Positions 6,339 to 49,643 of a stretch of DNA of 64,000 bases are shown piece after piece. The translations under genes were made by a program, and so were the position numbers. Position 1 is the first letter of the stretch. Each line of letters begins with the position of its first letter. The stretch spans positions 10,756 to 74,755 of the forward strand of contig JAKQBN010000030.1 of the NCBI GenBank assembly GCA_029559475.1, read 5' to 3'. This stretch comes from a bacterium (GTDB lineage: Bacteria; UBA4055). The notes beneath the pieces are model-generated. The model saw only the letters and a list, made by a program, of their open reading frames with translations, made no database searches and was not told the origin of the DNA.

Positions 6339-7457
6339 ATGAAAACAGAACACGTATATATTCACTTCCCCTTCTGCGTATCAAAATGCCCGTACTGCGA
6401 TTTCTTTTCCATTCCCTTTAACGATCCGGGAATTCATAAGAAATATATCGGCTATCTGCTTAAAGAGGTCGCCAATTATAATGAAATAACAGGACATCTA
6501 AAAAGCCTGTACATCGGAGGCGGTACTCCTTCGCTTATGCACCCGGATCTATTAGAAAAGATACTCAGCAGTTTCAGTTTTTATCCTGAATGCGAAGTCA
6601 CGATCGAAGTAAATCCGGCAACAGCTGACTTTAATAAATTAAGATCCTTTAAAGATCTCGGAGCGAACAGGATCTCTATCGGAACGCAGTCTTTTATTTC
6701 GTCCGATCTTAAAACGCTAGGAAGATCCCACGATGCAAATGATATTTACGAATGTTATGAAAACGCTAGAAAAGCCGGTTTTGAAAATATCAGCATTGAC
6801 CTGATTATCGGAATTCCCGGCCAGACTCCTGCTTCCGTTCAGTTTAACGCTACTGAGGCTGTGAACATTGCTCCGGAACATATTTCAACCTATATACTGA
6901 CATTTTACGACCATACGCCATTTTACAAAAAACTTGAAAGAGCTGAGATATTCAAGCATGATGACGACACGGAAATGGATTTTTTTGACCTTACTTCAGA
7001 GATATTAGAAAAATACTGTTATAAAAAGTACGAGATATCGAATTACTCGAAACCGGGAAAAGAATCGATCCACAATTCAAATACATGGAACTTCGGCAGC
7101 TATCTTGGCCTGGGAGCGGCCGCGCACTCTTTTTTTGGCAAAACGAGATGGGAAAATCCCAGATCGATCGAAAACTGGTATTACTCTGTTGTTAATTGCC
7201 GTAAAGCCTACAAAGAAACACAGTCAGACACTGTGTCATTAAAAAATGAATTCATAATGCTGGGGCTAAGAAGAACAGACGGTCTGAATACAGGATATTA
7301 CAGAGCCTTTTTCGGATCGGACATCATGGAAGATTATAAAGTCAGCTTAAACAAGTATCTCAATAACAAAATTCTCGTTAAAAACGGTGAATGTATCAGG
7401 TTCGATCAGAAAAAGATCGGGATCTTCAATTCTGTGGTTTCAGATATAATTCTTTAG
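6339..7457 (+). CDS. hemW: radical SAM heme chaperone HemW (oxygen-independent coproporphyrinogen III oxidase-like)
   Basis: A CxxxCxxC radical-SAM motif lies near the N-terminus (FPFCVSKCPYCDF), followed by the HemN-like C-terminal domain. The product is 372 aa. Confidence 0.8.
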   Translation: MKTEHVYIHFPFCVSKCPYCDFFSIPFNDPGIHKKYIGYLLKEVANYNEITGHLKSLYIGGGTPSLMHPDLLEKILSSFSFYPECEVTIEVNPATADFNKLRSFKDLGANRISIGTQSFISSDLKTLGRSHDANDIYECYENARKAGFENISIDLIIGIPGQTPASVQFNATEAVNIAPEHISTYILTFYDHTPFYKKLERAEIFKHDDDTEMDFFDLTSEILEKYCYKKYEISNYSKPGKESIHNSNTWNFGSYLGLGAAAHSFFGKTRWENPRSIENWYYSVVNCRKAYKETQSDTVSLKNEFIMLGLRRTDGLNTGYYRAFFGSDIMEDYKVSLNKYLNNKILVKNGECIRFDQKKIGIFNSVVSDIIL

Positions 7458-10912: not shown

Positions 10913-12007
10913 ATGAAAGATCTTAGCAGTAAATATATGGAAATTGCGATAAAACTTGCCTTAAAAGGAGCAGGAAAAGTAAGTCCCAACCCCATGGTCG
11001 GAGCTGTTATCGTAAAGAACGGCGTGATCATCGGAAAAGGCTATCATAAAGCCTATGGTCAGAACCACGCTGAAGTCAACGCTTTCGAATCCTGCGTAAC
11101 CGATCCTGCAGGCGCCGATATGTACGTTACACTGGAACCGTGCTGCCATTTCGGTAAAACTCCGCCCTGCACCGGCAGAATTATCAGGGAAAAAATTAAA
11201 AGGGTTTTTATAGGTTCGGGCGATCCCTCTCCTCATGCGGCTGGAAAAGGAATTGTTCAGCTGAAGAACGCCGGAATAGAAGTAGTTACCGGGGTATGCG
11301 AAAAGGAATGCACTATCCTGAATGCCGCTTTTTTAAAATTCGCAACAAAGAAAACTCCGCTGATCGTTATCAAAGCAGCGGTTTCAGCGGACGGATGCAT
11401 GGCGGCAGATTCTGGCGATTCCAAATGGATCACGAATGAAAAAAGCCGTAAATATTCTCACAGGCTTCGCAGTTTTTATGACGCTGTCCTTGTCGGAAAG
11501 AACACCGTAATTAACGATGATCCCGAACTGACAGTAAGACATGTGAAAGGTAGAAATCCGGTAAGAATTGTTCTTGACAGCAGGCTTGAGATACCTTCAT
11601 CTGAAAAAGTGTTCGACGGCACATCAGAAACGATCGTTATCTCCTCAAATTCTGCTGATAACAAAACGGCTGAAACCTTTTTGAAAGACAGAGGTATAAC
11701 TGTATTAAAGGTAGATATGAAAGACGGCTTTCTGGATTTGAAAACTGCTTTTATGCTGCTCGGAGAAAGAAAAATAACATCGGTAATGGCTGAAGGTGGA
11801 GGCACTATTCACAGCTATCTCTTAAATAACAGGATTGCTGACAGACTGAATCTTTTTACTGCTCCGGTTCTTATTGGAAGCGGTAAAAGATTTTTTTCAG
11901 GATCTGATTTCAGCTCCGTTGACAGTTCAATATGGCTTGATATAATTGATATCAAACATTTTGGAGACGATATTTTCACCGATGCTTTCTTGAGGTACAG
12001 GGATTGA
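10913..12007 (+). CDS. ribD: bifunctional riboflavin biosynthesis protein RibD (deaminase/reductase)
   Basis: The cytidine-deaminase zinc motifs HAEVNAFE and PCxxC (TLEPCCHFGKTPPC) are present, plus a C-terminal RibD reductase domain. Confidence 0.9.
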   Translation: MKDLSSKYMEIAIKLALKGAGKVSPNPMVGAVIVKNGVIIGKGYHKAYGQNHAEVNAFESCVTDPAGADMYVTLEPCCHFGKTPPCTGRIIREKIKRVFIGSGDPSPHAAGKGIVQLKNAGIEVVTGVCEKECTILNAAFLKFATKKTPLIVIKAAVSADGCMAADSGDSKWITNEKSRKYSHRLRSFYDAVLVGKNTVINDDPELTVRHVKGRNPVRIVLDSRLEIPSSEKVFDGTSETIVISSNSADNKTAETFLKDRGITVLKVDMKDGFLDLKTAFMLLGERKITSVMAEGGGTIHSYLLNNRIADRLNLFTAPVLIGSGKRFFSGSDFSSVDSSIWLDIIDIKHFGDDIFTDAFLRYRD

Positions 12008-13389
12008 AAATTACAAAAGAAACGAATTTTCTTCTTGCCTCCGATTTTTTTACGATCGGGCTTTCAACTGTGATCCTTTTTATAATAAAATTCAAATCGG
12101 CTTATTTTAAAACTTACACAGAACATTCATATTACGAACTTATCATAATAATACCGATACTTCTTCTTTTCTGGCTGGTGATCTTTCATATAAAGGACCT
12201 CTACAAATCCTTCTATTTCAGAAGCGCGATCGAAATCGCTTTAAGCAGCGTTTCGGGACTGACATTAGGCATTGTTATACTCTATGTAATTACAACGATG
12301 AATTTTCACGAATTTTCGGGAAAAGGTCTTCTCATTTATTATTTACTTCTTCTATTTTTCGTAGTATCAGGAAGGGTTGTCTTCAAGATAGTACTAAATC
12401 ATTTTCTGAAAAAAGGGGTAGGACTCCGCAACGCGCTGATAATAGGCTATAATAAATCCTCAAAAAAGATTATCAGGGAGTATCAGAAAGGCCGGCTTCT
12501 CGGACTGAACATCCTGGGATTCATCGACGACGGTAAGAACAATCCCGAATATCAGGGATTTAAGACCTTAGGCGATCTTGATGTGTTTGAAAATATAATC
12601 AAAGAAAATCATGTGCGTGAGATAATTATCTCTGTCGAAGTAAAAGATCCTTTCCTGATAAATACGATAATTTTAAAGTCAAAGGATCATAACGTCTATT
12701 ATAAGGTCGTACCGTCGCTGGAGGACATTATAAGCGGTAATGTAAGGACATACGAACTTTTCGGGTATAAGCTCCTCGAACTTTTCCCGGACATTTTGTC
12801 ACCTTTCCAGAGAGCATTAAAAAGGGCTTTCGACATTATAGTATCTCTCGTTCTTTTAGTACTGACTTTACCCATAATGCTGATCTCTGCAATTATTATT
12901 AAATTGGATTCCAAAGGCAGTATCATCTATACGCAAGACAGAGTAGGGAAGGATTTTAAGGAGTTCACTCTTTATAAATTCAGATCTATGATGGAGAACG
13001 CTGAAGCAGAAACAGGCGCGGTCTGGGCAATAAAAGGAGATACAAGAATTACGAAATATGGTAATTTTATGAGAAAAACCCGTATAGACGAGCTTCCTCA
13101 GCTCATAAATGTTCTGATGGGTAATATGAGCTTCGTAGGACCAAGACCTGAGAGAAAAGTTTTCGTGGACAACTTTATTCAGGCAATACCTTATTACTAT
13201 AAAAGGCTTCATGTAAAGCCCGGTCTGACCGGCTGGGCGCAGGTTAAACATAAATATGACGAATCGTTCGATGACGTAAAGGAAAAACTTAAATACGACC
13301 TGTATTATATTGAGAATATTTCACTTAAGCTCGACTTTATTATATTGTTTTACACAGCTAAAGTCGTAATAAATTTTAAAGGACATTAA
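12004..13389 (+). CDS. exopolysaccharide/undecaprenyl-phosphate sugar phosphotransferase (bacterial sugar transferase family)
   Basis: N-terminal transmembrane segments precede a conserved C-terminal sugar-transferase domain (KFRSM...ELPQLxNVLxGxMSxVGPRPE). The TTG start overlaps the ribD stop. Confidence 0.8.
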   Translation: MKITKETNFLLASDFFTIGLSTVILFIIKFKSAYFKTYTEHSYYELIIIIPILLLFWLVIFHIKDLYKSFYFRSAIEIALSSVSGLTLGIVILYVITTMNFHEFSGKGLLIYYLLLLFFVVSGRVVFKIVLNHFLKKGVGLRNALIIGYNKSSKKIIREYQKGRLLGLNILGFIDDGKNNPEYQGFKTLGDLDVFENIIKENHVREIIISVEVKDPFLINTIILKSKDHNVYYKVVPSLEDIISGNVRTYELFGYKLLELFPDILSPFQRALKRAFDIIVSLVLLVLTLPIMLISAIIIKLDSKGSIIYTQDRVGKDFKEFTLYKFRSMMENAEAETGAVWAIKGDTRITKYGNFMRKTRIDELPQLINVLMGNMSFVGPRPERKVFVDNFIQAIPYYYKRLHVKPGLTGWAQVKHKYDESFDDVKEKLKYDLYYIENISLKLDFIILFYTAKVVINFKGH

Positions 13390-21097: not shown

Positions 21098-21140
21098 CAA
21101 AGATGCAGGTTCGAAATACATATTTTAATGTCTGAATGAC

Positions 21141-21169
21141 AAAAAAATACTTGACATAGGAACTATAAA
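21141..21169 (+). promoter_or_regulatory. sigma70-like promoter upstream of tRNA-Lys
   Basis: TTGACA (21141-21146), a 17-nt spacer, then TATATT (21164-21169). It lies about 35 nt upstream of the tRNA 5-prime end. Confidence 0.4.
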
Positions 21170-21203
21170 TTTTTATATTTGGCACTGCTTTTTTAAAGCG
21201 GAT

Positions 21204-21276
21204 GGGAAAGTAGCTCAGTAGGTAGAGCACCGCCCTTTTAAGGCGATGGTCGACGGTTCGAATCCGTCCTCTCTCA
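21204..21276 (+). tRNA. tRNA-Lys (anticodon TTT)
   Basis: A hand-folded cloverleaf fits. The D arm is GCTC/GAGC, the anticodon loop CTTTTAA has U33 and A37, and the T arm is GACGG-TTCGAAT-CCGTC. The 7-bp acceptor stem has one mismatch and one G-U pair; CCA is not encoded. Confidence 0.75.
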
Positions 21277-21283
21277 CGAAAAA

Positions 21284-21310
21284 CCCCGATTATTTCGGGG
21301 TTTTTTATTT
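21284..21310. terminator. bidirectional rho-independent terminator
   Basis: A CCCCGA/TCGGGG stem is flanked by an A-run upstream and a T-run downstream. It sits between the tRNA-Lys 3-prime end and the stop of the convergent HD-GYP gene. Confidence 0.6.
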
Positions 21311-24039: not shown

Positions 24040-24747
24040 ATGAAGACACTGGGCATTATAGGCGGAATGAGCTACGAGTCGTCAAAGCTTTTTTACGAAC
24101 TGATCAATAACAGGGTGAACGACATTTTAGGGGGATACCACTGCTGCAAAAGTATTATGTACACCGTGGATTTTGACGAGATCGTCAGGCTGCAGAACGA
24201 AGAAAAATGGGATGAACTTAATCTGATAGTCGCTGATGTTACGAGAAAGCTTGAAGCCGGCGGGGCTGACCTTATCGTTCTTTGTACGAACACACTTCAT
24301 ATTTGCGCCGATGCGATAATAAATGCTACAAAAGTCCCATTCCTTCATATTGCCGAGACTGTCGGTGAAGAAGCTAAAAGCAGGTTTATTAAAAAAGCCG
24401 GCCTCCTTGGTACTAAATTCACTATGGAAAAGGATTTTTATAAGGATGTGCTTAAGGAAAAATACGGCATCGATGTTATTATTCCCGGCGAGATCGACAG
24501 GGACACTATTCATAATGTTATCTTCGGAGAGCTGGTCCACGGACAGATAAGGGAATCTTCAAGGAAAAAATTTATTGAAATTATTAACAGGCTGGAAAGG
24601 AACGGGGCTGAAGGGATAATTCTGGGCTGCACTGATATTCCGCTGCTGATATCTGAAGAACATCTCGAGATCCCGATATTCGACTCGATCAGACTTCATG
24701 CAGAGCATTCAGTGCGCAGGATTTTGAGCGATGAACTTAATCAATAG
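24040..24747 (+). CDS. aspartate/glutamate racemase family protein (aspartate racemase-like)
   Basis: The N-terminal GIIGGMSYESS motif and the two-cysteine racemase layout (C at about 83 and about 196) are present. The product is 235 aa. Confidence 0.75.
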   Translation: MKTLGIIGGMSYESSKLFYELINNRVNDILGGYHCCKSIMYTVDFDEIVRLQNEEKWDELNLIVADVTRKLEAGGADLIVLCTNTLHICADAIINATKVPFLHIAETVGEEAKSRFIKKAGLLGTKFTMEKDFYKDVLKEKYGIDVIIPGEIDRDTIHNVIFGELVHGQIRESSRKKFIEIINRLERNGAEGIILGCTDIPLLISEEHLEIPIFDSIRLHAEHSVRRILSDELNQ

Positions 24748-24753
24748 GACGCT

Positions 24754-25140
24754 CGACATAAGTAAAAGACGAGTGATATATTTTTATGAGCAGGAACGCA
24801 TCCTCGCTTTATCGTTTGAACGAGCCGTATATCCGGAAAAAAAATATCAAAGATTGTGCCGGTACGATTCAGATCCAAATAATCATATGATTAATGCTGA
24901 TATTTTTTTGGAGGATGATATGCGAGTGATATTAATGCCGGCTTAGCCGTTTGCGGTCTGCTTATAAAAATGATATGACGAGTATATATCGAACAAGTAA
25001 CAAATTTATACCTGATATAATTCGTTATGGATCGATATCCGTTACATCTTCCCTTTCGCAGGTACGACACTCTTAGCAAAGAAGCGATTGAGATTAATGT
25101 ATGCAGGATGAGATCCGGAATGAAGTTATATCAGGTATAT
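24754..25140 (+). repeat. copy A of a modular intergenic repeat family (3 copies in the window), containing a conserved mini-ORF MRVILMPA with a GGAGG Shine-Dalgarno (24920-24946)
   Basis: Near-identical blocks are shared with 27021-27207 and 49276-49643. The core is tttgaacgagccgtatatccgga...tttttttggaggatgatatgcgagtgatattaatg, and the terminal block gcaggatgagatccggaatgaa is common to all three. Confidence 0.65.
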
Positions 25141-25147
25141 TGAATAA

Positions 25148-25185
25148 TAAAAAAAGGGCAGTTCACATAAACCGCCCTTTAATTT
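25148..25185 (-). terminator. rho-independent terminator (bidirectional-capable) after the minus-strand OMP-like gene
   Basis: The AGGGCAG...CTGCCCT stem is flanked by an A-run and a T-run (aaaaaaagggcagttcacataaaccgccctttaatttttt). Confidence 0.6.
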
Positions 25186-25186
25186 T

Positions 25187-25993
25187 TTACAAGATACCAC
25201 CCCCACCGCCGATGAACAGCTTAATATACGGACCTGAAAGACCGAGATCAGGACAGTCCAGAATATTATTAAAATTGTCCTCGTTCGTAAAATCGAACAC
25301 ATATCCGCCTTTAAACCCGATCAGAAAATACCCTCCCTTACCGATCTTATAATTCGCACCGAGGGAAAGATCGAGCAGGTATGTCTCTTTCTTCAGAATG
25401 AACTCCCTCTTCGGATTGTCCAGAAGATCTCCGAACTCAACAGGAATATCTTCGATTATATGCATCTCGATAGTACTTCCTCCAAAACCGCCCGACACAT
25501 AGCTGAAAATGCTGTTGTTCTTGTAGAAAATATAACCCAGAGTGAACATTCCGTACTCATAAGTAAGACTAGATTCGTATTTGATCTGCGCGTCTGTGGA
25601 ATCATTACTGCCTGATCTTGACATAGGAATATTCCCGTGCCCTTCACCGCCTATAATGAAATTCCTGAATATCCCGCATCCTCCGCCGCCGGTAGTAAAA
25701 AGCGTTTCGTCGAATTCTTTGTACCCGTGGTCCTTCAGGCTTTTATTAAGCTTTGAAAGATCTAAGGTATTGAAACCCGCCATGAATCCGCCGTATCCTC
25801 CGTATGAATAGCCTTTTCCGTGATGATCTTTTCCGTTAATTATGATCTTTTTCTCGATGGTCTTGACGGTATCCCCTGAAATTATTTCGATCTTCTGTAT
25901 TTCATCAAGATTATTCTGGATCTTTACTTTTGTTGTGTCCTGTGCGCATAAAACAAAAACAAACGCAATTAACATTATTATTATTATTCTCAT
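25187..25993 (-). CDS. hypothetical secreted/outer-membrane protein
   Basis: A signal peptide (MRIIIIMLIAFVFVLCA) is followed by Gly/Tyr-rich beta-strand-like segments. No catalytic motif was seen. Confidence 0.4.
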   Translation of the reverse strand: MRIIIIMLIAFVFVLCAQDTTKVKIQNNLDEIQKIEIISGDTVKTIEKKIIINGKDHHGKGYSYGGYGGFMAGFNTLDLSKLNKSLKDHGYKEFDETLFTTGGGGCGIFRNFIIGGEGHGNIPMSRSGSNDSTDAQIKYESSLTYEYGMFTLGYIFYKNNSIFSYVSGGFGGSTIEMHIIEDIPVEFGDLLDNPKREFILKKETYLLDLSLGANYKIGKGGYFLIGFKGGYVFDFTNEDNFNNILDCPDLGLSGPYIKLFIGGGGGIL

Positions 25994-26005
25994 TTTCTCC
26001 CCTTT

Positions 26006-26302
26006 TTAGTTCTTTATCAGTTTTTCCAGATTAGCTATATAGTTTTCGAAAGCTGTCCTTCCCTTATCGGTGATCGAATATCTGCTCTGAGGTTTTCTGT
26101 CAACGAACGTTTTCTCGACCCCGATATATCCCGCTTCCTCCAGCTTCCGTAAATTCGCGCTCAGATTGCCGTCAGTGGCCTGAAGCTTGTTTTTTATTAT
26201 ACTGAACTCCGCATATTCAACACTAACAAGCATGCTCATTATCCCCAGCCTGAGCTTTGAATGAATTAATTCATCCAGAAGATTTGAGTCGAAGCCTGTC
26301 AT
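26006..26302 (-). CDS. winged-helix transcriptional regulator (HTH_34/PadR-like family)
   Basis: The 98-aa product has the pattern RLxIMxxL...F..I...L..TDGNLS.HLRKLEEAGYI...K.F..RKP.TxYxxTxKGRxAFxxY, typical of small winged-helix (wHTH) regulators paired with membrane proteins. Confidence 0.55.
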   Translation of the reverse strand: MTGFDSNLLDELIHSKLRLGIMSMLVSVEYAEFSIIKNKLQATDGNLSANLRKLEEAGYIGVEKTFVDRKPQSRYSITDKGRTAFENYIANLEKLIKN

Positions 26303-26952
26303 TATTTTACCTCTTCTTTTTTATATTTAATGTACAGCATAATGCCCGGTATCGTTTGGAATAAGAGCATCATCGCAGCGAAAACGATGAAAGTGTATTC
26401 AATGTAATCATTCGGGATCCAGAACAGAACTATTGCACCGACCCACCAGCCTAAAGCAGCAAATTTAAAGATCTTTGTGTTATACACCATTCCTGTGATG
26501 AAAAATGCATTTGCAAGAAACATAGCCATTAATGGATTAATCGCCTGCCATCCGATCATTCCGGAGAAAGTACCGGCAAAGCCGACTACTGTCATTGACA
26601 CTCCGGTTGATATCCATGTAGCCGCATCGATTTTAAGCGCGCTTGTGGACACACCTCTTTTTTCCTTTTTCTTACCCATAATAAAAGTGAGTATCCAACC
26701 GGCAGCGATCACAAAGATCCACATTAGTCCGATGTGTCTGCCAATGTCTGATATCAGCATAAAAAAACTTGACAGCTGAGCAGTTATTATCACTACTCCC
26801 CAGAGTATCGCTACGTCACCTCTGTCTTTAATTATATTCTTTGAATCAAGGATCACCTGTTTGATGTATTCAAGATTTTCCTGCGCCGCGTTTTTGTTTT
26901 CCATTTTTTCTCCCTTTTGTTTTGTTTTATCATTTGTTTTTTTTTGCACCAC
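26302..26952 (-). CDS. hypothetical integral membrane protein (partner of the wHTH regulator)
   Basis: Five to six hydrophobic helices are predicted. Its stop overlaps the regulator gene's start by 1 nt. Confidence 0.4.
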   Translation of the reverse strand: MVQKKTNDKTKQKGEKMENKNAAQENLEYIKQVILDSKNIIKDRGDVAILWGVVIITAQLSSFFMLISDIGRHIGLMWIFVIAAGWILTFIMGKKKEKRGVSTSALKIDAATWISTGVSMTVVGFAGTFSGMIGWQAINPLMAMFLANAFFITGMVYNTKIFKFAALGWWVGAIVLFWIPNDYIEYTFIVFAAMMLLFQTIPGIMLYIKYKKEEVK

Positions 26953-27020
26953 TTTAAAGAACTTTAAAATCTAAAGTAATTTACAACATTATTTTTGTGA
27001 TGTCAAGTGTTATTTTAAAT

Positions 27021-27207
27021 ATGCGAGACCGGCAGTGATTATTTGAACGAGCCTTATATCCGGAGAAAAAATATCAAAGATCGTGCCGTTACGGTTAATC
27101 TCCAAATCATCATATGATTAATGCCGATATTTTTTTGGAGGATGACATGCGAGTGATATTAATGGTTGCAGGATGAGATCCGAAATGAATATATGCCGGG
27201 TATATAG
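27021..27207 (+). repeat. copy B (shortest, internally deleted) of the modular repeat family, about 70 nt upstream of the O-methyltransferase gene
   Basis: It shares the accggcagtg(a/g)ttattt block, the tttgaacgagcc...ggaggatga(c/t)atgcgagtgatattaatg core and the gcaggatgagatccgaaatgaa block. Here the mini-ORF reads MRVILMVAG. Confidence 0.65.
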
Positions 27208-36967: not shown

Positions 36968-38209
36968 CTAATCTTCAAATATGATCTGCGGTTTACCTTT
37001 ATTCTGTTCGACCCTGATAATTTCAAGAATTTTATCATACGAGTACGATCCTTTCAGCTTCGGATTGAACCTGCATCGTACCGAAACTTCATTTTTCTCA
37101 ACTTCCTTATCGCCGACGACAAGTATCAGAGGAATTTTCCGCAATTCCGCATTCCTGATCCGGCTGCTCAGAGAATCATTATTGTCTGAAAGTTCTACAC
37201 GCATATCTTCCTCTTTCAGCTTGCGCACCAGTTTTTTGCAGTGATCCGAACGGTTACTGTTTATATCGATAACCATTACCTGCATCGGAGACAGCCAGAA
37301 CGGCAGACTGCCCGAATAGAATTCCAGCAGTACGGCTATGAACCTTTCAATACTTCCGAACAAAGCACGGTGCACAAGATACGGAACATGGAATTTTCCG
37401 TCAGAACCGCGGTATTCCATCTTGAATTTACCGGGCAGGTTGAAATCGAACTGAACAGTGCTGCACTGCCATTCATTTCCCGCGAAATCGATTATCTTGA
37501 TATCTATTTTAGGCCCGTAAAAAGCACCGCCGCCTTCATCGATCTCATATTCCAGTCCGACTTCATTTACAGCTTTTTTCAAATGTTCAACCGCCATTTC
37601 CCAGTCTGAATCACTGCCTATAGCTTTCTCGGCCGGTTTAGTAGCTATATAAGCCTTGAACTTATTCAGCCCGAAAGCCCTGAGAACATAAAGGCTGAAC
37701 TTGAGAGCACGGAGTATCTCGCCGTAGATCTGATCCTTACTGCAGATAATATGCGCGTCATCCTGAACAAAACCTCTCACCCTTTTCAGCCCGTGCAGAG
37801 CACCGGAGAACTCATACCGGTAAACAGTGCCGAATTCCGCATACCTGACCGGCAGTTCCTGATATGACCTCTGCCTGTTCTTAAAGATCATCAGATGAAA
37901 AGGACAATTCATCGGCTTAAGATAATATTCTTCCTCATCTATCTTTATCGGAGCATACATATTTTCCTTAAAGAAATCCAGATGCCCTGAAGTTTTCCAC
38001 AAACCTGCCTTACCGATATGAGGAGAATAAACCCATTCATAGCCGTTTTGCAAATGAGCCTTCTGACTGAACCTTTCAAGCTCGTACCTTATGACACTTC
38101 CGTTCGGGTGAAAAGACACAAGACCCGCTCCGACTTCCTCTGAAAAACTATACAGATCAAGCTCTTTTCCAAGTTTGCGATGATCCCTGTTTTCGATAAT
38201 ATTCTTCAT
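36968..38209 (-). CDS. thrS: threonine--tRNA ligase paralog lacking N-terminal TGS/editing domains (catalytic class II core + anticodon-binding domain only)
   Basis: The product begins RDHRKLGKELDLY, which corresponds to about residue 240 of canonical ThrRS. Class II motifs and a C-terminal anticodon-binding domain are present. Upstream stop codons occur in all frames, so the 413-aa length is genuine. Confidence 0.75.
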   Translation of the reverse strand: MKNIIENRDHRKLGKELDLYSFSEEVGAGLVSFHPNGSVIRYELERFSQKAHLQNGYEWVYSPHIGKAGLWKTSGHLDFFKENMYAPIKIDEEEYYLKPMNCPFHLMIFKNRQRSYQELPVRYAEFGTVYRYEFSGALHGLKRVRGFVQDDAHIICSKDQIYGEILRALKFSLYVLRAFGLNKFKAYIATKPAEKAIGSDSDWEMAVEHLKKAVNEVGLEYEIDEGGGAFYGPKIDIKIIDFAGNEWQCSTVQFDFNLPGKFKMEYRGSDGKFHVPYLVHRALFGSIERFIAVLLEFYSGSLPFWLSPMQVMVIDINSNRSDHCKKLVRKLKEEDMRVELSDNNDSLSSRIRNAELRKIPLILVVGDKEVEKNEVSVRCRFNPKLKGSYSYDKILEIIRVEQNKGKPQIIFED

Positions 38210-38240
38210 TTTTTATTCCTTTAATTTAATTTTTTACAAT

Positions 38241-38273
38241 AAAAAAAGCCGCTGAACCCGAGGGTCCGGCGGC
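38241..38273 (-). terminator. strong rho-independent terminator located 32 nt upstream of the thrS-like start codon (candidate attenuator/T-box terminator)
   Basis: On the minus strand the sequence is GCCGCCGGACCCTCGGGTTCAGCGGC followed by TTTTTTTATT. A GC-rich 26-nt hairpin like this is unusual in this AT-rich DNA. Confidence 0.55.
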
Positions 38274-38415
38274 TTATTAACAAACCGTTTTTAGATTATG
38301 TTAAATTATACCAACCCCCTCCGGGTTCGAAACTCGTAGGTGGTCGTGGTCAGTGCGATTCCTATATGTCGTAAATTAATTTTCATTTTCTTACTTTTTT
38401 TTTAATTCCGACCGC

Positions 38416-38444
38416 AAATTACTACAATTATTTTTTATTGTCAA
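38416..38444 (-). promoter_or_regulatory. candidate sigma70 promoter for the thrS-like leader
   Basis: On the minus strand, TTGACA is followed by a 17-nt spacer and TAATTT. This would give a leader of about 190 nt that contains an ACG-ACC-ACC run. Confidence 0.3.
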
Positions 38445-38461
38445 GCGATAAAACGATCCGT

Positions 38462-39397
38462 TTATTTATACTCATTTAGCTTGCTTAATAATTCAACAGC
38501 CTCGATCCCGAACTTAGAAAATCCGAACCATTTCTTTCCAAGATCTTTTAATGATGCACCGAAATGATACACATCCGAGTCGTCAATAATTATAAATCTG
38601 TCGTGCGATTTTTTGAATATTCTTATTTCAATCGGAAAATACTGCTCGCTGAATTTTTCTATGTCAAGTTTTAGCTGTGGTGAAACCGATTGAGTCAGGA
38701 TCGTTACTTTTACATTCTTGTTTACTTTTACGAGAAGAACCAGAACAGTATCGTCAATATAATTGTCTATGATCAACACCGATTTCTCAGCTCTTCGAAA
38801 CAAATCAGACACAAACTTGTATGCATCGAATATCTGACCGTCAAAGAATATCCCTTGCTTTGGCTGTAATTCCTTACTTTCAAGCGCATTGAATAGTTTA
38901 TCTAATTTAATATCATTTTCAATCAATTTTACTTCAACTCGATCCAATCTCTGAAATACTTGAGCATTTGACTGTATGAATTTACGCATCTCGACAAATG
39001 CTTTCATAATTTTCACACTGATTATTATTGCCGTTTCGCTCCTTAATACAGCTGATAACATTGCAACACCCTGTTCTGTGTAAACGAATGGCAAATATTT
39101 TGTGTGCCTACCTTTTGCATCCTCTATGATCACAATTTGTGATCTTAAAGAGTTCTTGTGCCTATTTTCGCTCTTTATACAAGATTTTATATTTTCATAT
39201 TCTGATTCATCAAGTTGGAAACAAAAATCATCAGGAAACCTTTCCTTGTTCCTTTTAACAGCCTGATTAAGAATCCTTGTCTCCACTCCGTAAAGTTCAG
39301 CCAAATCTCTATCCAGCATCACCTGATATCCCCTAATAGAATAAATCCTGTCTCGGATTACCCCCTCATCAAATTTTTCCAATTCATTACCTGTCAT
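38462..39397 (-). CDS. ORF6N (KilA-N-like) domain-containing protein
   Basis: The N-terminal ORF6N signature is IRDRIYSIRGYQVMLDRDLAELYGVETRILNQAVKRNKERFPDDFCFQL. The internal ATG at 39397 is preferred because GGGAG lies upstream. Confidence 0.7.
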   Translation of the reverse strand: MTGNELEKFDEGVIRDRIYSIRGYQVMLDRDLAELYGVETRILNQAVKRNKERFPDDFCFQLDESEYENIKSCIKSENRHKNSLRSQIVIIEDAKGRHTKYLPFVYTEQGVAMLSAVLRSETAIIISVKIMKAFVEMRKFIQSNAQVFQRLDRVEVKLIENDIKLDKLFNALESKELQPKQGIFFDGQIFDAYKFVSDLFRRAEKSVLIIDNYIDDTVLVLLVKVNKNVKVTILTQSVSPQLKLDIEKFSEQYFPIEIRIFKKSHDRFIIIDDSDVYHFGASLKDLGKKWFGFSKFGIEAVELLSKLNEYK

Positions 39398-39436
39398 AAA
39401 TAATTCTCCCGATAACATTTTAGGCAATATAACACG

Positions 39437-39465
39437 AGAAGAGTGCCATCTAATGGCACTCTTCT
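39437..39465. terminator. perfect 13-bp inverted repeat hairpin (terminator or protein-binding palindrome) between the GNAT and ORF6N genes
   Basis: The arms are agaagagtgccat and atggcactcttct with a cta loop. No clean T-run follows on either strand. Confidence 0.4.
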
Positions 39466-39488
39466 ATAAAATATGAATTATTTTTTTA

Positions 39489-40109
39489 TTATTTTACGAG
39501 AGGTATCTCATCTCCGAAAACATCGAAAATTTTTATATCATTGTCTTCAAATCCGTGATACTCGCTTCTGAACAGAACCCAGACCATAAAATCCCTGAAC
39601 TCTCCTTCAAAAGCCGTATTGACCCTCTTCCTAATACATTCCAGATTAAAACCGAGCTTTTTTGGGACATTCTGACTTTTCTGATTTTCGGGAACACATT
39701 TGATCTCGAACCTGTCTATTTCTTCATTCATGAAACCGACTTTGATCAGCGCTTTTGAAATTTCCGTGACTATACCCTTTCCGCATTCTTCCTTATCGAT
39801 CCAGTATCCGATCTCGTAGGCATACTTACCGTTGTGAGTATGAAGTCCCGTACCGCCTATCACTTTAGATTCGTCCCTGTTAAAGATACCATACACAAAA
39901 TCCTTTGAAGCATCGAAATTCGACCTGAACCTGCGCAATATCTCAATCCTGTCCTCAACAGTAAGAGGCTCTTTATGTACGAAGGGCATAAATTCTTTAA
40001 GATGATCCACATTCTTCGTGATCGAAGCGTGAAGCAGCTTCGCGTCAGCCGGATTCCAGCATCTTAGAACGCATCGCTTTGTTTCAATTCTATAAGATGG
40101 ATATTTCAT
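39489..40109 (-). CDS. GNAT family N-acetyltransferase (RimJ/RimL-like)
   Basis: The RimL-like start (MKYPSYRIETKRCVLR) and GNAT motif A (ECGKGIVTE) are present. The ATG at 40109 is preferred because an AGAGGT Shine-Dalgarno lies upstream. Confidence 0.7.
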   Translation of the reverse strand: MKYPSYRIETKRCVLRCWNPADAKLLHASITKNVDHLKEFMPFVHKEPLTVEDRIEILRRFRSNFDASKDFVYGIFNRDESKVIGGTGLHTHNGKYAYEIGYWIDKEECGKGIVTEISKALIKVGFMNEEIDRFEIKCVPENQKSQNVPKKLGFNLECIRKRVNTAFEGEFRDFMVWVLFRSEYHGFEDNDIKIFDVFGDEIPLVK

Positions 40110-40187
40110 TTTTACCTCTTTGCGCCATTTTTTAACATGACTAGTCAACAGATTTCTTGTATATATAGACTGGTGTGATACACAATT

Positions 40188-40590
40188 TTATTTGTGATTG
40201 AACTTAGTAAAATATTCGTCAATTTCTGGCCTTAATTCAATTCCTACTCGCTCAAAGATGTCCAACAAATCATTATAAGTACCTTCGCCACCTAAAAAAT
40301 CCCAGAATTCATGAGCTACTTTTAATTCATTCTCAAGATCAAGCATACCAGCCATAGTCCATCTGGTATACGGTTTCGGCTCATAAGGATTATATGGAAT
40401 TGCAATTAAAGTATTTACATTGGCTTGAGGATTATCAGCAAGTACGCAAGCAGTCCATTGAAGTAATGTTCTTTTAAATTCAATAAATCCGCCTTTATTA
40501 GGCTTTGCAGTTTTTATATCGAATAAAAATAATTCTCCTGAAATAGTGACATTTGTCCCTTCGCGAAGTGTTATATTACAAATATAAGGC
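40188..40590 (-). pseudogene. start-less ORF remnant (about 133 codons, no ATG/GTG/TTG), possible fragment of a PD-(D/E)XK-like nuclease
   Basis: I translated this by hand: ...TLREGTNVTISGELFLFDIKTAKPNKGGFIEFKRTLLQW...EFWDFLGGEGTYNDLLDIFERVGIELRPEIDEYFTKFNHK*. Stops occur in all frames upstream, and it abuts the divergent start of the HTH-repeat gene. Confidence 0.35.
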
Positions 40591-40606
40591 TAAACTGGAG
40601 GGGAAA

Positions 40607-41452
40607 ATGACAAAAAAGGAAACAGAGCTTCAAAGATACATAGATAAGACAAGCGAGGGAGAGTTTCTGTACGAGTTGGCAAATTCGTATGAGCTCTCCC
40701 CGATTTTAAGTAAAAACATCCTTCAAACAGCCAAAACCTGCCTTCTCCAAAGCAAAGTACTTCAAGCCGGACAGATAGAATATCACTGCGTAAGTATCGA
40801 TGAAAAAAGCGGGAAGCAGATGCTTGATATGAGCAAGATAAAAGTTATTCTGACTCTAAAGGACGAAATCGAAGATATAACTACTTTAAGCGTGGAAGGC
40901 AGAAGCGTATATCGTCAGAATAAAATTCAAAGGATGACTGATGAGGCTATAGCGCAAAACGGCATATTAAGTCAGGAAGATCTTAGTATGCTGCTGAATG
41001 TAAGCGTGAGAACGATCAAGCGTGATATTCGTAGAATAAAGATCAGGAATATTGAAGTGATCACCCGCGGGACCTATCACAATATAGGAAGGGGACAAAC
41101 GCACAAGACACGAATAATCAGCCTATTTCTTGAAGGATGCACATATACTGACATCAAGTGGAAAACGCATCACAGCACAGGATCAATCAAGAGGTATCTT
41201 GATAGCTTCGGAAAAGTTCTGATGTGTGTGGAGTATGGTATTAAGGACAAGTCAGAGATACGATCTGTAACAAATCTGTCTGAATATCTGATATGCCAGT
41301 ACCTGGATATACTCAAATCTGCAGAAAAAAGTAAAGTGAAATCAGAAAACTTGGATATGCTTAAACAGCAACTGTCATATAGATATGGTTCAAAAAAAAC
41401 GATCGTTTACGATGGTCTGAGAGCGGAAGCTACGACAGGAGGCTGGAAATGA
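40607..41452 (+). CDS. hypothetical protein with three tandem helix-turn-helix-like modules (paralog 1)
   Basis: The ATG at 40607 is preferred because GGAGGGGAAA lies upstream. Repeated modules include LSQEDLSMLLNVSVRTIKRDI, YTDIKWKTHHSTGSIKRYL and SEIRSVTNLSEYLICQYL. Confidence 0.5.
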   Translation: MTKKETELQRYIDKTSEGEFLYELANSYELSPILSKNILQTAKTCLLQSKVLQAGQIEYHCVSIDEKSGKQMLDMSKIKVILTLKDEIEDITTLSVEGRSVYRQNKIQRMTDEAIAQNGILSQEDLSMLLNVSVRTIKRDIRRIKIRNIEVITRGTYHNIGRGQTHKTRIISLFLEGCTYTDIKWKTHHSTGSIKRYLDSFGKVLMCVEYGIKDKSEIRSVTNLSEYLICQYLDILKSAEKSKVKSENLDMLKQQLSYRYGSKKTIVYDGLRAEATTGGWK

Positions 41453-42246
41453 ATCTGAACAATATACGGGACAGATATGAAAGCATAAACAAACGGAACT
41501 TCAGATCAGCTTTGATAAGCCTTTTAGAAAACGATTATAAAATTTTAGGATCAAGAAAAATCTTATCCATGCTTGCAGAGGACATTGAACAGCTTTATAA
41601 CGAATTTAATCCTAAAATATCTGAAGTCGGCTTTGGTGAGATCGTATTCAGGACAACAAAAGATGATGGTCAAAGACAAAGTTACGGTAAGAAGACAGAA
41701 GATTATGCGTCAACGACAGTGATACTGCCATTGATAACAAAAGATGATGTTGAGCGCAGAATTTATTTCCGCAAAGGCGACAGAAACAGTAATTACGAGC
41801 ACAGAGAGTCAAGGGACATAGAAACTATGGTAAGGCTAATCAAAAGCGCAAAGGAGCAAGGCGGATTACTCACCGGAGCGGAAGTAAGTGTTCTGATGAA
41901 CAGAAGCCTCAGTACCATCAGAAAATATCTTGATGCTTACAGGAATAAAACAGGTGAAATACTTCCGCTGAAAGGATATGTGCTTGATCAAGGCAGCCTG
42001 CCTACTCATAAAGGCATAATCGTATCGCTTTATGAGCAGGGAATATCTCCGTCCGATATTGTTTTAAAAACTTCACACAGCCAAAGCGCGGTTGATCGCT
42101 ACATCGGGCAATACGATCAGATTAAGAAGCTCATTAAAAAAGGTTTAAATGAGCGTGAAATTAAAGATATTACGAGAAGGTCATTGAAAATCATCAGAGA
42201 ATATGTTAAATTGTATAAACAATTAAATCCGGAAGTGAAAAAATGA
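41449..42246 (+). CDS. hypothetical protein with three tandem helix-turn-helix-like modules (paralog 2)
   Basis: It aligns by eye with paralog 1 over about 130 residues (GxLxxxExSxLxNxSxxTIxxxL...THKxxIxSL...DIxxKTxHSxxxxxRYx). It is coupled to paralog 1 by an ATGA overlap. Confidence 0.5.
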   Translation: MNLNNIRDRYESINKRNFRSALISLLENDYKILGSRKILSMLAEDIEQLYNEFNPKISEVGFGEIVFRTTKDDGQRQSYGKKTEDYASTTVILPLITKDDVERRIYFRKGDRNSNYEHRESRDIETMVRLIKSAKEQGGLLTGAEVSVLMNRSLSTIRKYLDAYRNKTGEILPLKGYVLDQGSLPTHKGIIVSLYEQGISPSDIVLKTSHSQSAVDRYIGQYDQIKKLIKKGLNEREIKDITRRSLKIIREYVKLYKQLNPEVKK

Positions 42247-42249
42247 AGA

Positions 42250-42729
42250 TTATTTACTACCGCGCTTCGCTTGCTTACTTCTCAGGGGACAAATGTCACT
42301 AATGTAAAAAGATTCAAGCATGACATCTACTTTTGTAGCCTTAACAACTTTCATCTTACCTTTCTGGCAAACTTTTCTTATCGCATTGATTTCTTCGGGT
42401 TTACAAGGTTTTACATTTGCTGCGGTTAAATCATCCATAATATCTTGAATTACTCTTTGAGCATCTTCACTGATATTAACACCAGCTTTAGCTTGTGCCG
42501 TTGCGTTTTTGAAATTTTTACTGGCTAATGCGAGTGCGACAGGTTCAAATATGCTGGTACCAAAATTTGTATTCAATGATTGAATAAAAGAGAACAATGC
42601 GATCCTGTCACTGCCTAGTAGTCTTGTATGGAACGGCATTGAAGCTGGTTCTGGATTATAATTTTTGAATTTATGCCTCAAGCTATTTCTTAAGACATCT
42701 TCTATTTGTTTTATTTGATTACTATCCAT
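42250..42729 (-). CDS. hypothetical 159-aa protein co-transcribed downstream of the DNA methyltransferase (candidate restriction/specificity partner)
   Basis: It starts 33 nt after the MTase stop on the same strand. I did not recognise any motif family. Confidence 0.35.
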   Translation of the reverse strand: MDSNQIKQIEDVLRNSLRHKFKNYNPEPASMPFHTRLLGSDRIALFSFIQSLNTNFGTSIFEPVALALASKNFKNATAQAKAGVNISEDAQRVIQDIMDDLTAANVKPCKPEEINAIRKVCQKGKMKVVKATKVDVMLESFYISDICPLRSKQAKRGSK

Positions 42730-42762
42730 TTCAAGTTATCTCAAGTAAGTTAGGGTTTAGAA

Positions 42763-44388
42763 TTACTTCCTCTTCAAGTGAAATATTATTTCCGAGTAGG
42801 CACTTTTATCTCTTTCGGTACGGTTGAGCACTGGTCTTTTGAACTGATTTACAATTTTCATATCTGCATTATCTGCGATAGTTGGATATAAATTATATTT
42901 ATCGTTTGCTACGAGAAACACATCATAATCCTTTACAAAGTACTTTTTTACATTGTTCAAAACATCGCTTATGCCTTTAACATAGCTATCTTTAGCTTCT
43001 CGGCCTTGACCTTTGAAAAGAGGTCCGATTTCAAGCTCGTCATTCCTGTCGAATCCGAAAAGATCATAAGCGTAGGCATGCTGTTCATGATAATCAATTA
43101 AACCTACATAAGGAGGTGATGAAAATATCCCGTTTATTTTCTTTTTTGAAACAAGTTTTGAAAATTCAGGATCCAATTTTTTTAAACCGTTGACTATATC
43201 AATCGTTCTGCTGTCACCGGTCAGGCAAGTATGAAATGTTTCTTTTTTTAGCTTTGAGTAATCTTCTAAGCGCTTTACAGTGTCTTTAGCGTATCTTTCC
43301 CACCAGCTCAAAATTGAAAATAAAGGTTTGCATATTTTACCGTGTTTTGAACAGTAATATGTCGTCGTTACAGGCTCGAAAAGAGTTGCAAGATCTGCAT
43401 GAGTAGTTGCTCTGCAACTTCTGATAGTCCTGCTTAATATTACGCTTACAATTTCTTTCGTATCCGAATTAGCTATTTTCTTTATCTCATTGTGCACTAT
43501 TTCAATTTCTTCTCTGATGTGCTCAGAATACCATTTGTCGAGAAATGAGCCTTCTTTGCTTTGTCGCTGCTTGATTTTATACTCAGCTACTAATTTTTTG
43601 AAGATCGGTAAGAACTCTTTTTCTTTTTCAGCTCCATAAGTATCTTCATCTACCATTTTACGCTTAATATTGTAACGGTATTCTGGAGACGGAAAATGTT
43701 TTAGATTAAAATCATATAGCTCGTGTAATAATTTTTCTTCAAATTCTACAGTATGATTATCTTTCAAGAATAATTTTAGTTTTTTAGAAATTTCGCTTAT
43801 AACTTTTAGCACTTCATCATAGTTATAGTCTTTAACTTTACATTTAGCTATCATAGAATTGAATGCTGAAACATCAATCCCTATTGAATGGATTCCAAGT
43901 TCGCAAGCTTGTACCATTGTAGTGCCGCTGCCTGAAAAAGGATCGAGTACTATATCACCTTGTTTGAAGTAAATCTCTTTTTTGAAATCATCAACATGCG
44001 CGTCTAAAAAATACTCAACCAGTTGAGGTATAAATTTTCCTTTGTAGGGATGTAATCTGTGAACATGTTTTGTTGTGTCTGATTCTTTATACTGATCAAA
44101 TGACAATGCCCAATTAAGATCATTTCCAAGTTCTTTTTTCCATGTATCTACTCTGGATTCCTTAAAACCCGCATAATATTCGGCAAGCTCTTCTTTAACA
44201 ACCATAGTCGATCCATTTTCGCCAATTTTTTTTATTCTACCGTACTGGACTAAATAAGATATATTTGAAGGTGTTACATTTTTCCCTAGTAAATCTGAAG
44301 CCCAATCGCTTGCTTCCTTTATTGACAATAATTCTGACATTTTCTTTACCTGCTTCATGTGCAATTTATCTGTCTTTTCAATCTTCAT
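42763..44388 (-). CDS. DNA methyltransferase (N6-adenine or N4-cytosine type; FxGSGTT motif I and SPPY motif IV) with N-terminal HTH-like segment
   Basis: The HPYKGKFxPQLVEYFL...GDIVLDPFSGSGTTMVQACELG motif lies at about aa 120-165, and IFSSPPYVGLIDY at about aa 420. The N-terminal 70 aa are HTH-like. Confidence 0.8.
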   Translation of the reverse strand: MKIEKTDKLHMKQVKKMSELLSIKEASDWASDLLGKNVTPSNISYLVQYGRIKKIGENGSTMVVKEELAEYYAGFKESRVDTWKKELGNDLNWALSFDQYKESDTTKHVHRLHPYKGKFIPQLVEYFLDAHVDDFKKEIYFKQGDIVLDPFSGSGTTMVQACELGIHSIGIDVSAFNSMIAKCKVKDYNYDEVLKVISEISKKLKLFLKDNHTVEFEEKLLHELYDFNLKHFPSPEYRYNIKRKMVDEDTYGAEKEKEFLPIFKKLVAEYKIKQRQSKEGSFLDKWYSEHIREEIEIVHNEIKKIANSDTKEIVSVILSRTIRSCRATTHADLATLFEPVTTTYYCSKHGKICKPLFSILSWWERYAKDTVKRLEDYSKLKKETFHTCLTGDSRTIDIVNGLKKLDPEFSKLVSKKKINGIFSSPPYVGLIDYHEQHAYAYDLFGFDRNDELEIGPLFKGQGREAKDSYVKGISDVLNNVKKYFVKDYDVFLVANDKYNLYPTIADNADMKIVNQFKRPVLNRTERDKSAYSEIIFHLKRK

Positions 44389-44437
44389 AAACGTTTCTAA
44401 TTTACTCTAAACAAGTTGTTTTTACAAACAAAATTCC

Positions 44438-49166: not shown

Positions 49167-49275
49167 AACTTGAGCCTCTTTATGTTCTTTTATAACTTAA
49201 CTGTATAATATAGGATTGAATGTTATATTATTCAAGAAATAAATGCTGATATTCGCGCGGGTGGCATTATATTGC

Positions 49276-49643
49276 CCGGCATAAGTTCATCTATAAACTT
49301 TAATTTAGAGGTGTAACGGGATCCGTTCTTATATGAATTATGTCTCTCCGCATGACCGGCAGTGGTTATTTAGAAGAGTGATATATTTTGATAAGCAGAA
49401 ACGCATCCTCGCTTTATCGTTTGAACGAGCCGTATATCCGGAGAAAAAATATCAAAGATCGTGCCGGTACGATTCAGATCCAAATTATCATATAATTAAT
49501 GCTGATATTTTTTTGGAGAATGATATGCGAGTGATATTAATGCCGGCTTAGCCGGTTGCGGTCTGCTTAGAAAAATTATAAAAAGAGACCAAATTGAACG
49601 GATGGCTGCAGGATGAGATCCGGAATGAATTTATACCGGGCAT
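49276..49643 (+). repeat. copy C (most complete) of the modular intergenic repeat family; contains the mini-ORF MRVILMPA with a GGAGA Shine-Dalgarno
   Basis: It carries all the blocks seen in copies A and B, plus extra 5-prime sequence. The terminal block is gcaggatgagatccggaatgaa. Confidence 0.65.

Follow-up and report, generated by a model that had tools for sequence, protein, structure and literature searches.

A MITE-like intergenic repeat family with a strongly conserved internal segment in Candidatus Delongbacteria

Copies of the repeat in the window and its full-length anatomy

A stretch of 64,000 nucleotides of contig JAKQBN010000030.1 (NCBI GenBank assembly GCA_029559475.1, positions 10,756 to 74,755 of the forward strand), here called the window, carries three copies of an intergenic repeat, which we designate A, B and C. 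The same DNA matches part of contig DAOMIT010000001.1 in the NCBI metagenome-assembled genome (MAG) GCA_035431505.1. [quoted passage not shown] With refined extents the copies lie at 24751–25138 (A), 27020–27204 (B) and 49273–49642 (C), all of them, with all of their parts, on the plus strand, and a repeat finder places them in its families D1 and D2. Two core blocks, the 27-nt TATATCCGGARAAAAAATATCAAAGAT and the 28-nt GGAGRATGAYATGCGAGTGATATTAATG, each have three exact matches in the window with 0 mismatches, and each was matched in 0 of 100 dinucleotide-preserving shuffles; the listed blocks, their clean boundaries and a recurring GAGTGATAT(A)TT motif are likewise all visible in the alignments. 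This description can be extended by inverted repeats at the termini, by the finding that the 5' block is a foldback, by an inverted module at 25011–25138 and by copies outside the window.

The anatomy was derived from an alignment of eight and then 11 distinct copies, three from the window and eight from related metagenome contigs (L-numbers denote these related contigs or loci). The 11 copies align end to end and are recovered by a profile with E-values between 1e-59 and 1e-144. At its full length of about 430 nt the element runs from a foldback module of about 125 nt (M) through a linker, a core and a tail to a terminal arm; the cargo (K) measures about 290 nt. The linker after M holds an arm-like box, r1, and a small hairpin. 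Three parts make up the core: core5 (TTTGAACGAGCC.TATATCCGGAGAAAAAATATCAAAGATC), a variable middle, and core3 (GATATTTTTTYGGAGGATGATATGCGAGTGATATTAATG), which bears a Shine-Dalgarno ribosome-binding site (SD) and an ATG. The terminal arm, GCAGGATGAGATCCGGAATGAAGTTATGTCGGGTAT, closes the element and is the inverse of its first ~45 nt; the left end of the composite and the inverse of its right end are alignable over this length of about 45 nt.

Copy A (nhmmer E = 2.8e-89) follows the stop codon of an Asp/Glu racemase gene, at 24747, and precedes what reads by eye as a terminator-like hairpin, at about 25150–25186. Most of its 5' M is deleted, and a 13-nt remnant of the left terminal arm, GCTCGACATAAGT (24751–24763), is fused to the linker via an internal deletion, where the copy at the same locus in L001 retains a complete M. 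The r1 box (CGAGTGATATATTTT...GCAGGAACGCATCC, 24770–24803), which we read from the alignment as a degenerate arm-like direct repeat with a small hairpin, is the recurring motif mentioned above. It is followed by core5 (TTTGAACGAGCC.TATATCCGGA.AAAAAATATCAAAGAT, 24815–24856), the 5' strand of a predicted hairpin that pairs with the SD/ATG region, and by core3 (GATATTTTTTTGGAGGATGATATGCGAGTGATATTAATG, 24899–24937), with its SD GGAGG at 24910–24914 and its ATG at 24920. A complete M in inverted orientation (25011–25138; reverse-strand nhmmer match 25142–25017) forms the 3' boundary.

Copy B (nhmmer E = 4.1e-59) sits between divergent genes and is a 185-nt stump from which M, the r1 linker and the tail of the open reading frame (ORF) have all been deleted; the L001 copy at this locus is a complete 430-nt element. 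What remains is core5 (27042–27082), core3 (27126–27164, SD 27137–27141, ATG at 27147) and a 3' terminal arm of family D2, GCAGGATGAGATCCGAAATGAATATATGCCGGGTAT (27168–27204). Copy C (nhmmer E = 4e-114) lies antisense between two minus-strand genes and is nearly full length, about 50 nt of the M loop being deleted. Its M (49273–49348) has a left arm TGCCCGGCATAAGTTCAT, an internal right arm ATGAATTATGTCTCTC and the partly deleted loop; it is followed by an r1 box placed by alignment (49375–49408), core5 (49420–49460; as in copy B, from the alignment and the exact-block match), core3 (49504–49542, SD GGAGA 49515–49519, ATG at 49525) and the 3' terminal arm GCAGGATGAGATCCGGAATGAATTTATACCGGGCA (49608–49642), which is the inverted counterpart of the left arm and shares with it a CCGG variant. 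Every window copy has GGAGG or GGAGA 5 nt before the ATG, and the short reading frames had been read correctly as MRVILMPA* in A (24920–24946) and C (49525–49551) and as MRVILMVAG* in B (27147–27176).

The ~31-nt arms of M, GCTCGACATAASTTCATCTAAAAACGGACCC and its inverse, contain the motif TRCYCGACATAASTTCAT, and RNAalifold pairs the 5' arm with the internal arm over 22 pairs. M folds far more strongly than shuffled sequence on both strands, with z-scores of about -4 to -6 in most copies and weaker values in three (the shuffles were mononucleotide shuffles, hence all folding z-scores given here are approximate); an excess on both strands is what a DNA palindrome would give and a strand-specific RNA would not. 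The module also occurs alone. In the genome from which the window comes, a solo M directly follows the stop codon of polA (L054 3859–3985, E = 2e-35; at about 72,770 of contig DAOMIT010000001.1, roughly 5 kb past the window end at 64000), and L034, L035 and L037 carry M with a 23-nt stump of K.

The extra block of copy A, and that of the L001 copy at the same locus (L001_A), proved to be a complete inverted M. In copy A it is identical to the solo M at 85 of 116 positions, with loop-specific matches, and the alignment score against the solo M is 31–36 for the reverse complement and 4–8 for the forward sequence. In L001_A both modules are complete, M on the 5' side and inverted M on the 3' side. 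Since copy A retains the entire inverted M as its 3' boundary, we infer an ancestral form M-K-M(inverted), a composite bounded by two MITEs, most copies of which would have lost the interior of the 3' M. For copies other than A and L001_A the two-M form is deduced through common deletion junctions: L011, window copy C and L029/L030 lie at different loci and have the same junction in the 3' module, implying that the shortened form was in its turn copied elsewhere.

Terminal inverted repeats are thus found in the M arms, at the composite ends and, with a common CCGG variant, in both arms of copy C; the units measure 125 nt (M) and 185–430 nt (composite), with ORFs of 7–78 codons and no transposase gene. 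The explanation that we favor, with reasonable though far from complete confidence, is a decaying, low-copy, non-autonomous composite in which two inverted M MITEs surround a short cargo and which is mobilized in trans by a transposase encoded elsewhere.

Distribution and turnover at orthologous sites

Judged by EF-P sequences from related contigs, the lineage belongs to Candidatus Delongbacteria, a candidate phylum for which we know of no cultured members. An EF-P identical to that of L013 (protein P0053) carries the NCBI label "Clostridiales bacterium" and its close relatives are all labeled Candidatus Delongbacteria; the MAG is probably mislabeled.

Two exact-pattern scans of the GTDB species-representative genomes, one for each conserved core block, gave no match, so that the family has no members in that collection at exact-pattern stringency. 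Scans of viral sequences returned chance matches only, and no match to the element was found by BLAST against plasmids and phages. Three exact matches, at unrelated loci (L011, L012 and L013), came from one activated-sludge metagenome assembly, and look-ups of neighboring proteins led to a sister lineage (L001 and contigs like it) that is 86–96% identical to the window in its DNA and is occupied at the same two sites as A and B with a different block content. Copies are also present at unrelated loci beside relA, efp, a gene for a DegT-type aminotransferase and polA; at least seven distinct loci carry the element. The first-pass annotation had allowed that the repeat might be only a local triplication; it is not, since copies occur at other loci and in other lineages.

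There is no fixed relation to the neighboring genes. The copies are 3' UTR-like (in the manner of a 3' untranslated region; A, L012), lie between divergent genes (B), are co-directional (L013) or antisense (C, L011), and their orientation to neighboring transcription is mixed (five sense, three antisense). Nor is occupancy of a site constant. Neither site A nor site B is occupied in the syntenic relative L014, where identity in the neighboring 268-aa protein is 72%; the element is also missing from L015 and L016, which are non-syntenic at site A and do not contain the flank of site B. Downstream of the efp terminator, in the efp-msrAB spacer, four states are found among the lineages: L013 has the element in forward orientation; L029, L030 and L031, encoding an identical EF-P, have it inverted; L034, L035 and L037 have an M stump; and the spot holds an unrelated inverted-repeat element, family 2, in L033, L040 and L056, or, in L036, a foldback derivative of that family. 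Short contigs from Logan end within the element (L007–L010, and L049, which stops 264 nt upstream of a 245-aa gene). The empty sites of L014, the four efp-site states and the contig breaks together indicate turnover by insertion or replacement, and not simple vertical inheritance or an in-place flip.

These observations bear on the view that the repeats are not mobile at all, but ancient intergenic paralogues, or the products of a local triplication, that have been retained as regulatory sites, with the flip at efp being the in-place inversion of an invertible switch. Such inversion is reported for Correia elements (review PMC10969869), the inverted arms could support it, all three window copies have one orientation, and the window and L001 lineages both have copies at sites A and B. 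However, the inverted efp-site copy is only 81% identical to the L013 copy where the flanks are 92–97% identical, and a 16-nt leftover arm adjoins it, which is not the product of a simple flip; further, the copies lie at the unrelated loci named above, an unrelated repeat family fills the same sites in other lineages, and non-orthologous copies have common deletion junctions. The unrelated-locus copies and the efp-site comparison already largely refute a non-mobile origin, and we regard it as extremely improbable.

Family 2 elements are about 170–200 nt long with inverted repeats, for example AATCAAGAATTTG...CAAAATCTTGATT, and an internal CCGAAAGCTGATTTACGGGCTTACGG. They lie at L014 4935–5103, L033 10605–10800, L040/L041 10605–10803 and L056 ~6600–6790, filling in relatives the same spots as the repeat described here, namely site B (L014) and the efp-msrAB spacer, and they are not found in the window. 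At the efp site of L036 (10605–10690) there is a near-perfect long hairpin, AACCACCATATAGCGCAGACCG...CGGTCTGCGCTATATGGTGGTT, which looks like a foldback derivative since its loop holds the inverse of the family 2 internal motif. Intergenic regions in this lineage are thus recycled by at least two unrelated families of small repeats.

Copies at corresponding positions are not always the most similar ones. The core of window A is 96% identical to that of window C and only 83% to its positional counterpart L001_A, and window B is 97% identical to L011 and only 89% to its positional counterpart L001_B, which indicates that sequence has been exchanged within the genome or replaced in place. Either process fits the mosaic look of the family. 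The segment between A and B (window 25007–27020) holds three genes, for an exported protein of 268 aa, an HTH_34 regulator and a membrane protein of 200 aa. Its identity to L001 is 95.6%, and that of the DNA outside both repeats is 86–88%; this difference could reflect exchange by recombination between the flanking direct repeats, or slower-evolving genes.

The conserved core and the reading frame behind it

Mean pairwise identity across the copies is 94.4% in core5 and 95.9% in core3, and 80% in the middle of the core between them; it is 81–85% in the M arms, 74% in the M loop, 72% in the linker and tail, and 78% in the 3' arm. We read the near-invariance of core5 and core3 as a requirement on the DNA or RNA sequence of the element and not on a peptide.

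The history of the reading frame does not support the suggestion of a conserved mini-ORF of 8–9 codons or a leader-peptide gene. Across the copies its length is 7, 8, 8, 9, 14, 19, 19, 19 and 78 codons. The 19-codon version is found in L011, L012 and L001_B (MRVILIPALADCELLRKMI, MRVILMPASAGCSLLRKII and MRVVLIPALTGCRPFRKMI), and the window forms are truncations of it: in A and C a 1-nt deletion (CTTTAG to CTTAG) makes a TAG after codon 8, and in B a deletion joins codon 6, at ATTAATG, to the 3' terminal arm. L001_A has 7 codons and L013 has 14; L029 reads through to 78 and has been called as a gene; the L030/L031 copy has lost both SD and ATG. A hand count over aligned codons of the three intact 19-codon versions gave about 10 amino-acid changes to 3 silent ones. 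When 5.8 billion proteins were searched with the longest version, the only match was another copy of the element, and no protein in that collection shared several exact 5-residue words with a 40-aa N-terminal sequence; the search offers no evidence that the ORF begins a known protein, nor for a conserved peptide. Judged from sequence comparison, the SD–ATG region is conserved as nucleotide sequence and not as a peptide. A type I toxin was considered and ruled out, the peptide being too short, too polar and not conserved.

In the RNAalifold prediction core5 pairs with core3 in a long A/U-rich hairpin that masks part of the SD together with the ATG. This raises the possibility that K is a functional small gene, riding on M or domesticated: a regulatory RNA, a leader whose SD and ATG are masked or unmasked by the core hairpin, or a small-peptide or toxin-like mRNA, the repeats persisting because they serve the host or the element. 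Several observations are in line with such a gene. The two blocks are 94–96% identical across copies of at least three lineages, with 80% between them and 72–85% in the rest; they are mutually complementary and include an ideally spaced SD and ATG; one-sided changes in the helices mostly keep pairing through G-U on the plus strand (pair 25/96, for example, is GC in four copies, GU in four and AU in one); the whole element folds more stably on the plus strand in six of eight copies; and three copies keep exactly the 19-codon ORF ending in RK(M/I)I*. On the other hand, the covariation is not significant, the observed score being reached by 74 of 500 shuffles with 21 of the 35 pairs never varying, and the folding energy of the core hairpin is ordinary (z about -1 on both strands), like that of shuffled sequence. 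Rfam searches at gathering and relaxed thresholds returned only a tRNA-Lys and noise, with no match to the element, and neither a canonical, conserved sigma-70-type promoter nor a terminator was found inside it. Most copies have the peptide cut short or lost, and it is too short and polar for a membrane toxin; the L030/L031 copy has no start signals, and the orientation to neighboring transcription is mixed. We find a functional gene in K unlikely, though it is the main alternative, kept in view by the near-invariance of the two complementary blocks; the predicted core hairpin itself is plausible but unproven.

As to signals, the best internal promoter candidate, TTGAAC-18-AAAAAT with 8 of 12 matches, fell below the scan threshold and was rejected. 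The tRNA-Lys(UUU) at window 21140–21290 has a canonical TTGACA-17-TATATT promoter and a clear terminator hairpin, showing that the organism uses standard sigma-70 signals. A likeness to group II intron domain V (GAGCCGTAT...GTACGGTTC) was also discarded, because of wrong spacing, a mismatch in each copy and the lack of an intron model match.

A related possibility, which we consider improbable, is that K is a portable functional module: a MITE-spread small RNA or translation-control hairpin, or a hairpin needed in cis by the mobilizing enzyme. It would explain why the complementary internal blocks are far better conserved than the arms. The wider interest lies in this SD–ATG hairpin, both strands of which are near-invariant across lineages while the transposon arms drift; if the conserved core reflects function, MITEs would here be distributing a regulatory module.

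HEARO/IscB loci have a structured sequence directly upstream of an SD and ATG, and in the present element some 330 nt of partly structured sequence likewise lie directly upstream of the SD and ATG. The family might accordingly derive from a single-stranded-DNA or RNA-guided transposon, either an IS200/IS605-type PATE with an IscB/TnpB-style guide-RNA scaffold or an IS110-type element with a bridge RNA, the conserved core being an RNA or DNA hairpin required in cis upstream of a decapitated ORF. Target-site duplications are not detectable, the element ends carry hairpins, the internal blocks are better conserved than the termini, and the remnant peptide LMP...C..LL(R/K) has a loose likeness to the N-terminal PLMP region of IscB. 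Yet a full copy drew no match from Rfam, HEARO included, at E up to 10; the two ends, with their oppositely oriented M modules, are true inverted repeats, which IS200/IS605 ends are not; the left junctions show no conserved tetra- or pentanucleotide beyond AT-richness; no IscB, TnpB, TnpA or IS110 gene is present in any fetched locus; and the peptide search gave no longer relative. We consider such a derivation very unlikely, and a remnant of IscB or HEARO specifically was rejected for want of a model match or a linked gene.

Known leaders provide a further comparison for the predicted hairpin. The ribosome-binding site in the transposase leaders of IS10 and IS200 is paired with a sequence upstream of it. 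The repeat resembles them in having a strong SD and ATG that can pair with an upstream block, which is predicted to mask the start on transcripts from outside; it differs from them in that no transposase ORF follows the ATG and in that the hairpin has ordinary energy without covariation support.

A probable non-autonomous composite and its relation to known repeats

Under the favored explanation of a composite mobilized in trans, the ancestral unit would have consisted of two small MITEs in inverted orientation around a short non-coding cargo, like a composite transposon made of MITEs. A transposase encoded elsewhere would recognize the arms of M and move either the complete composite or M by itself. 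Once inserted, copies would lose blocks by internal deletion, in at least one case at a short microhomology, and this loss would give the family its mosaic, modular look. Copies may then exchange sequence within the genome by gene conversion or re-insertion. The optimally spaced SD and ATG in K could pair with the upstream complementary block in a long hairpin, and the ORF behind this ATG would be a variable remnant.

Of the two kinds of element proposed at the outset, the MITE-like one is borne out by the inverted repeats, the solo M, the non-coding content, and the dispersed copies with polymorphism of presence and orientation. REP-like does not fit because the units are 125–430 nt and not palindromes of 20–40 nt; moreover, no RAYT-like (Y1 transposase) gene occurs in any annotated locus, as would be looked for with REP sequences, which often stand in alternating clusters, and with BIMEs.

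Several observations weigh against the favored explanation. No target-site duplication is seen at about eight independent insertion sites, where the junctions were compared by eye and the flanks are merely AT-rich; a TA or TATA duplication appeared at one site only and was discarded. This weakens membership among the MITEs without excluding it, since old copies could have lost repeats of 2–4 bp; direct repeats of bacterial MITEs are known to fade in old copies (review PMC10969869). The window, ~0.5 Mb of related loci and the peptide search yielded neither a transposase nor an autonomous element sharing these arms, and no other sequence in those ~0.5 Mb carries the arm motif. The arms (78–85% identity) are less conserved than the two internal blocks (94–96%), the opposite of what simple recognition by a transposase predicts. 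Copy number looks low for a MITE, with three composites and one solo M in ~84 kb of the source genome and only the three exact matches in the activated-sludge assembly. Two lineages with 86–96% identity in the flanking DNA both have copies at sites A and B, so many copies are old and may no longer move. Finally, the M-K-M(inverted) ancestor is read from a single locus type.

Foldback MITEs such as Correia/NEMIS of Neisseria, ERIC/IRU of enterobacteria, RUP of pneumococcus and QMITE of Coxiella are, like the present repeat, small, non-coding, AT-rich and intergenic, and share with it terminal inverted repeats, strong stem-loops, internal indel variants and insertion on either strand. The present family differs from them in having no sequence likeness to anything searched, no target-site duplication and no known partner insertion sequence (IS), in an apparently low copy number, and in that its best-conserved part is internal, in the SD/ATG hairpin blocks, and not in the arms. 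The arrangement of two inverted small non-autonomous elements around a cargo, with the unit also found solo, recalls TIME-COMPs and MITE-flanked integrons (PMC10969869, PMC4133298), and is represented here by both modules in L001_A, the inverted M and arm remnant of copy A, and the solo M of L054. However, the cargo here is some 290 nt without a gene, as opposed to a resistance gene or an integron; the two-M form, known from sequence, is intact at one locus type (copy A and L001_A); and the M arms have no Tn3-type 38-bp repeat. With the BOX repeats (boxA-boxB-boxC) of Streptococcus pneumoniae and with nested repeat clusters the family has in common modules that are variably present, spots occupied by different families, and an uncertain function beyond selfish spread, whereas its modules vary mainly by deletion from a longer ancestor and not by variable tandem numbers, and the sequences and host phylum are unrelated.

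The repeat is therefore a new family of a familiar selfish kind, plus one odd, strongly conserved inner segment, and is the first repeat or mobile-element family described for Candidatus Delongbacteria. Repeats of this sort also have a practical side, in that they break metagenome assemblies and yield spurious gene calls of 58–83 aa in public catalogues: the catalogued "hypothetical proteins" at L029 5062–5298, L030 845–1096 and L039 1039–1215 are read-through translations of the repeat.

Two further features of these loci may be recorded. Beside the cobalamin adenosyltransferase gene of L001 there is an IS-like ORF pair (11435–12564), a 96-aa ORF followed by a protein with an rve integrase domain; it is missing at the corresponding place in the window, and its ends do not carry the arm motif of the repeat. 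In the window, the stretch 38000–44400 has a low GC content (34–38%, against ~41% elsewhere) and holds genes for an ORF6N-domain protein, a GNAT acetyltransferase, two adjacent DUF1670 paralogues (40553–42246), an N6/N4 DNA methyltransferase (42763–44388) and a fragment of a HinfI-like endonuclease; it is possibly an acquired island with a restriction-modification system.

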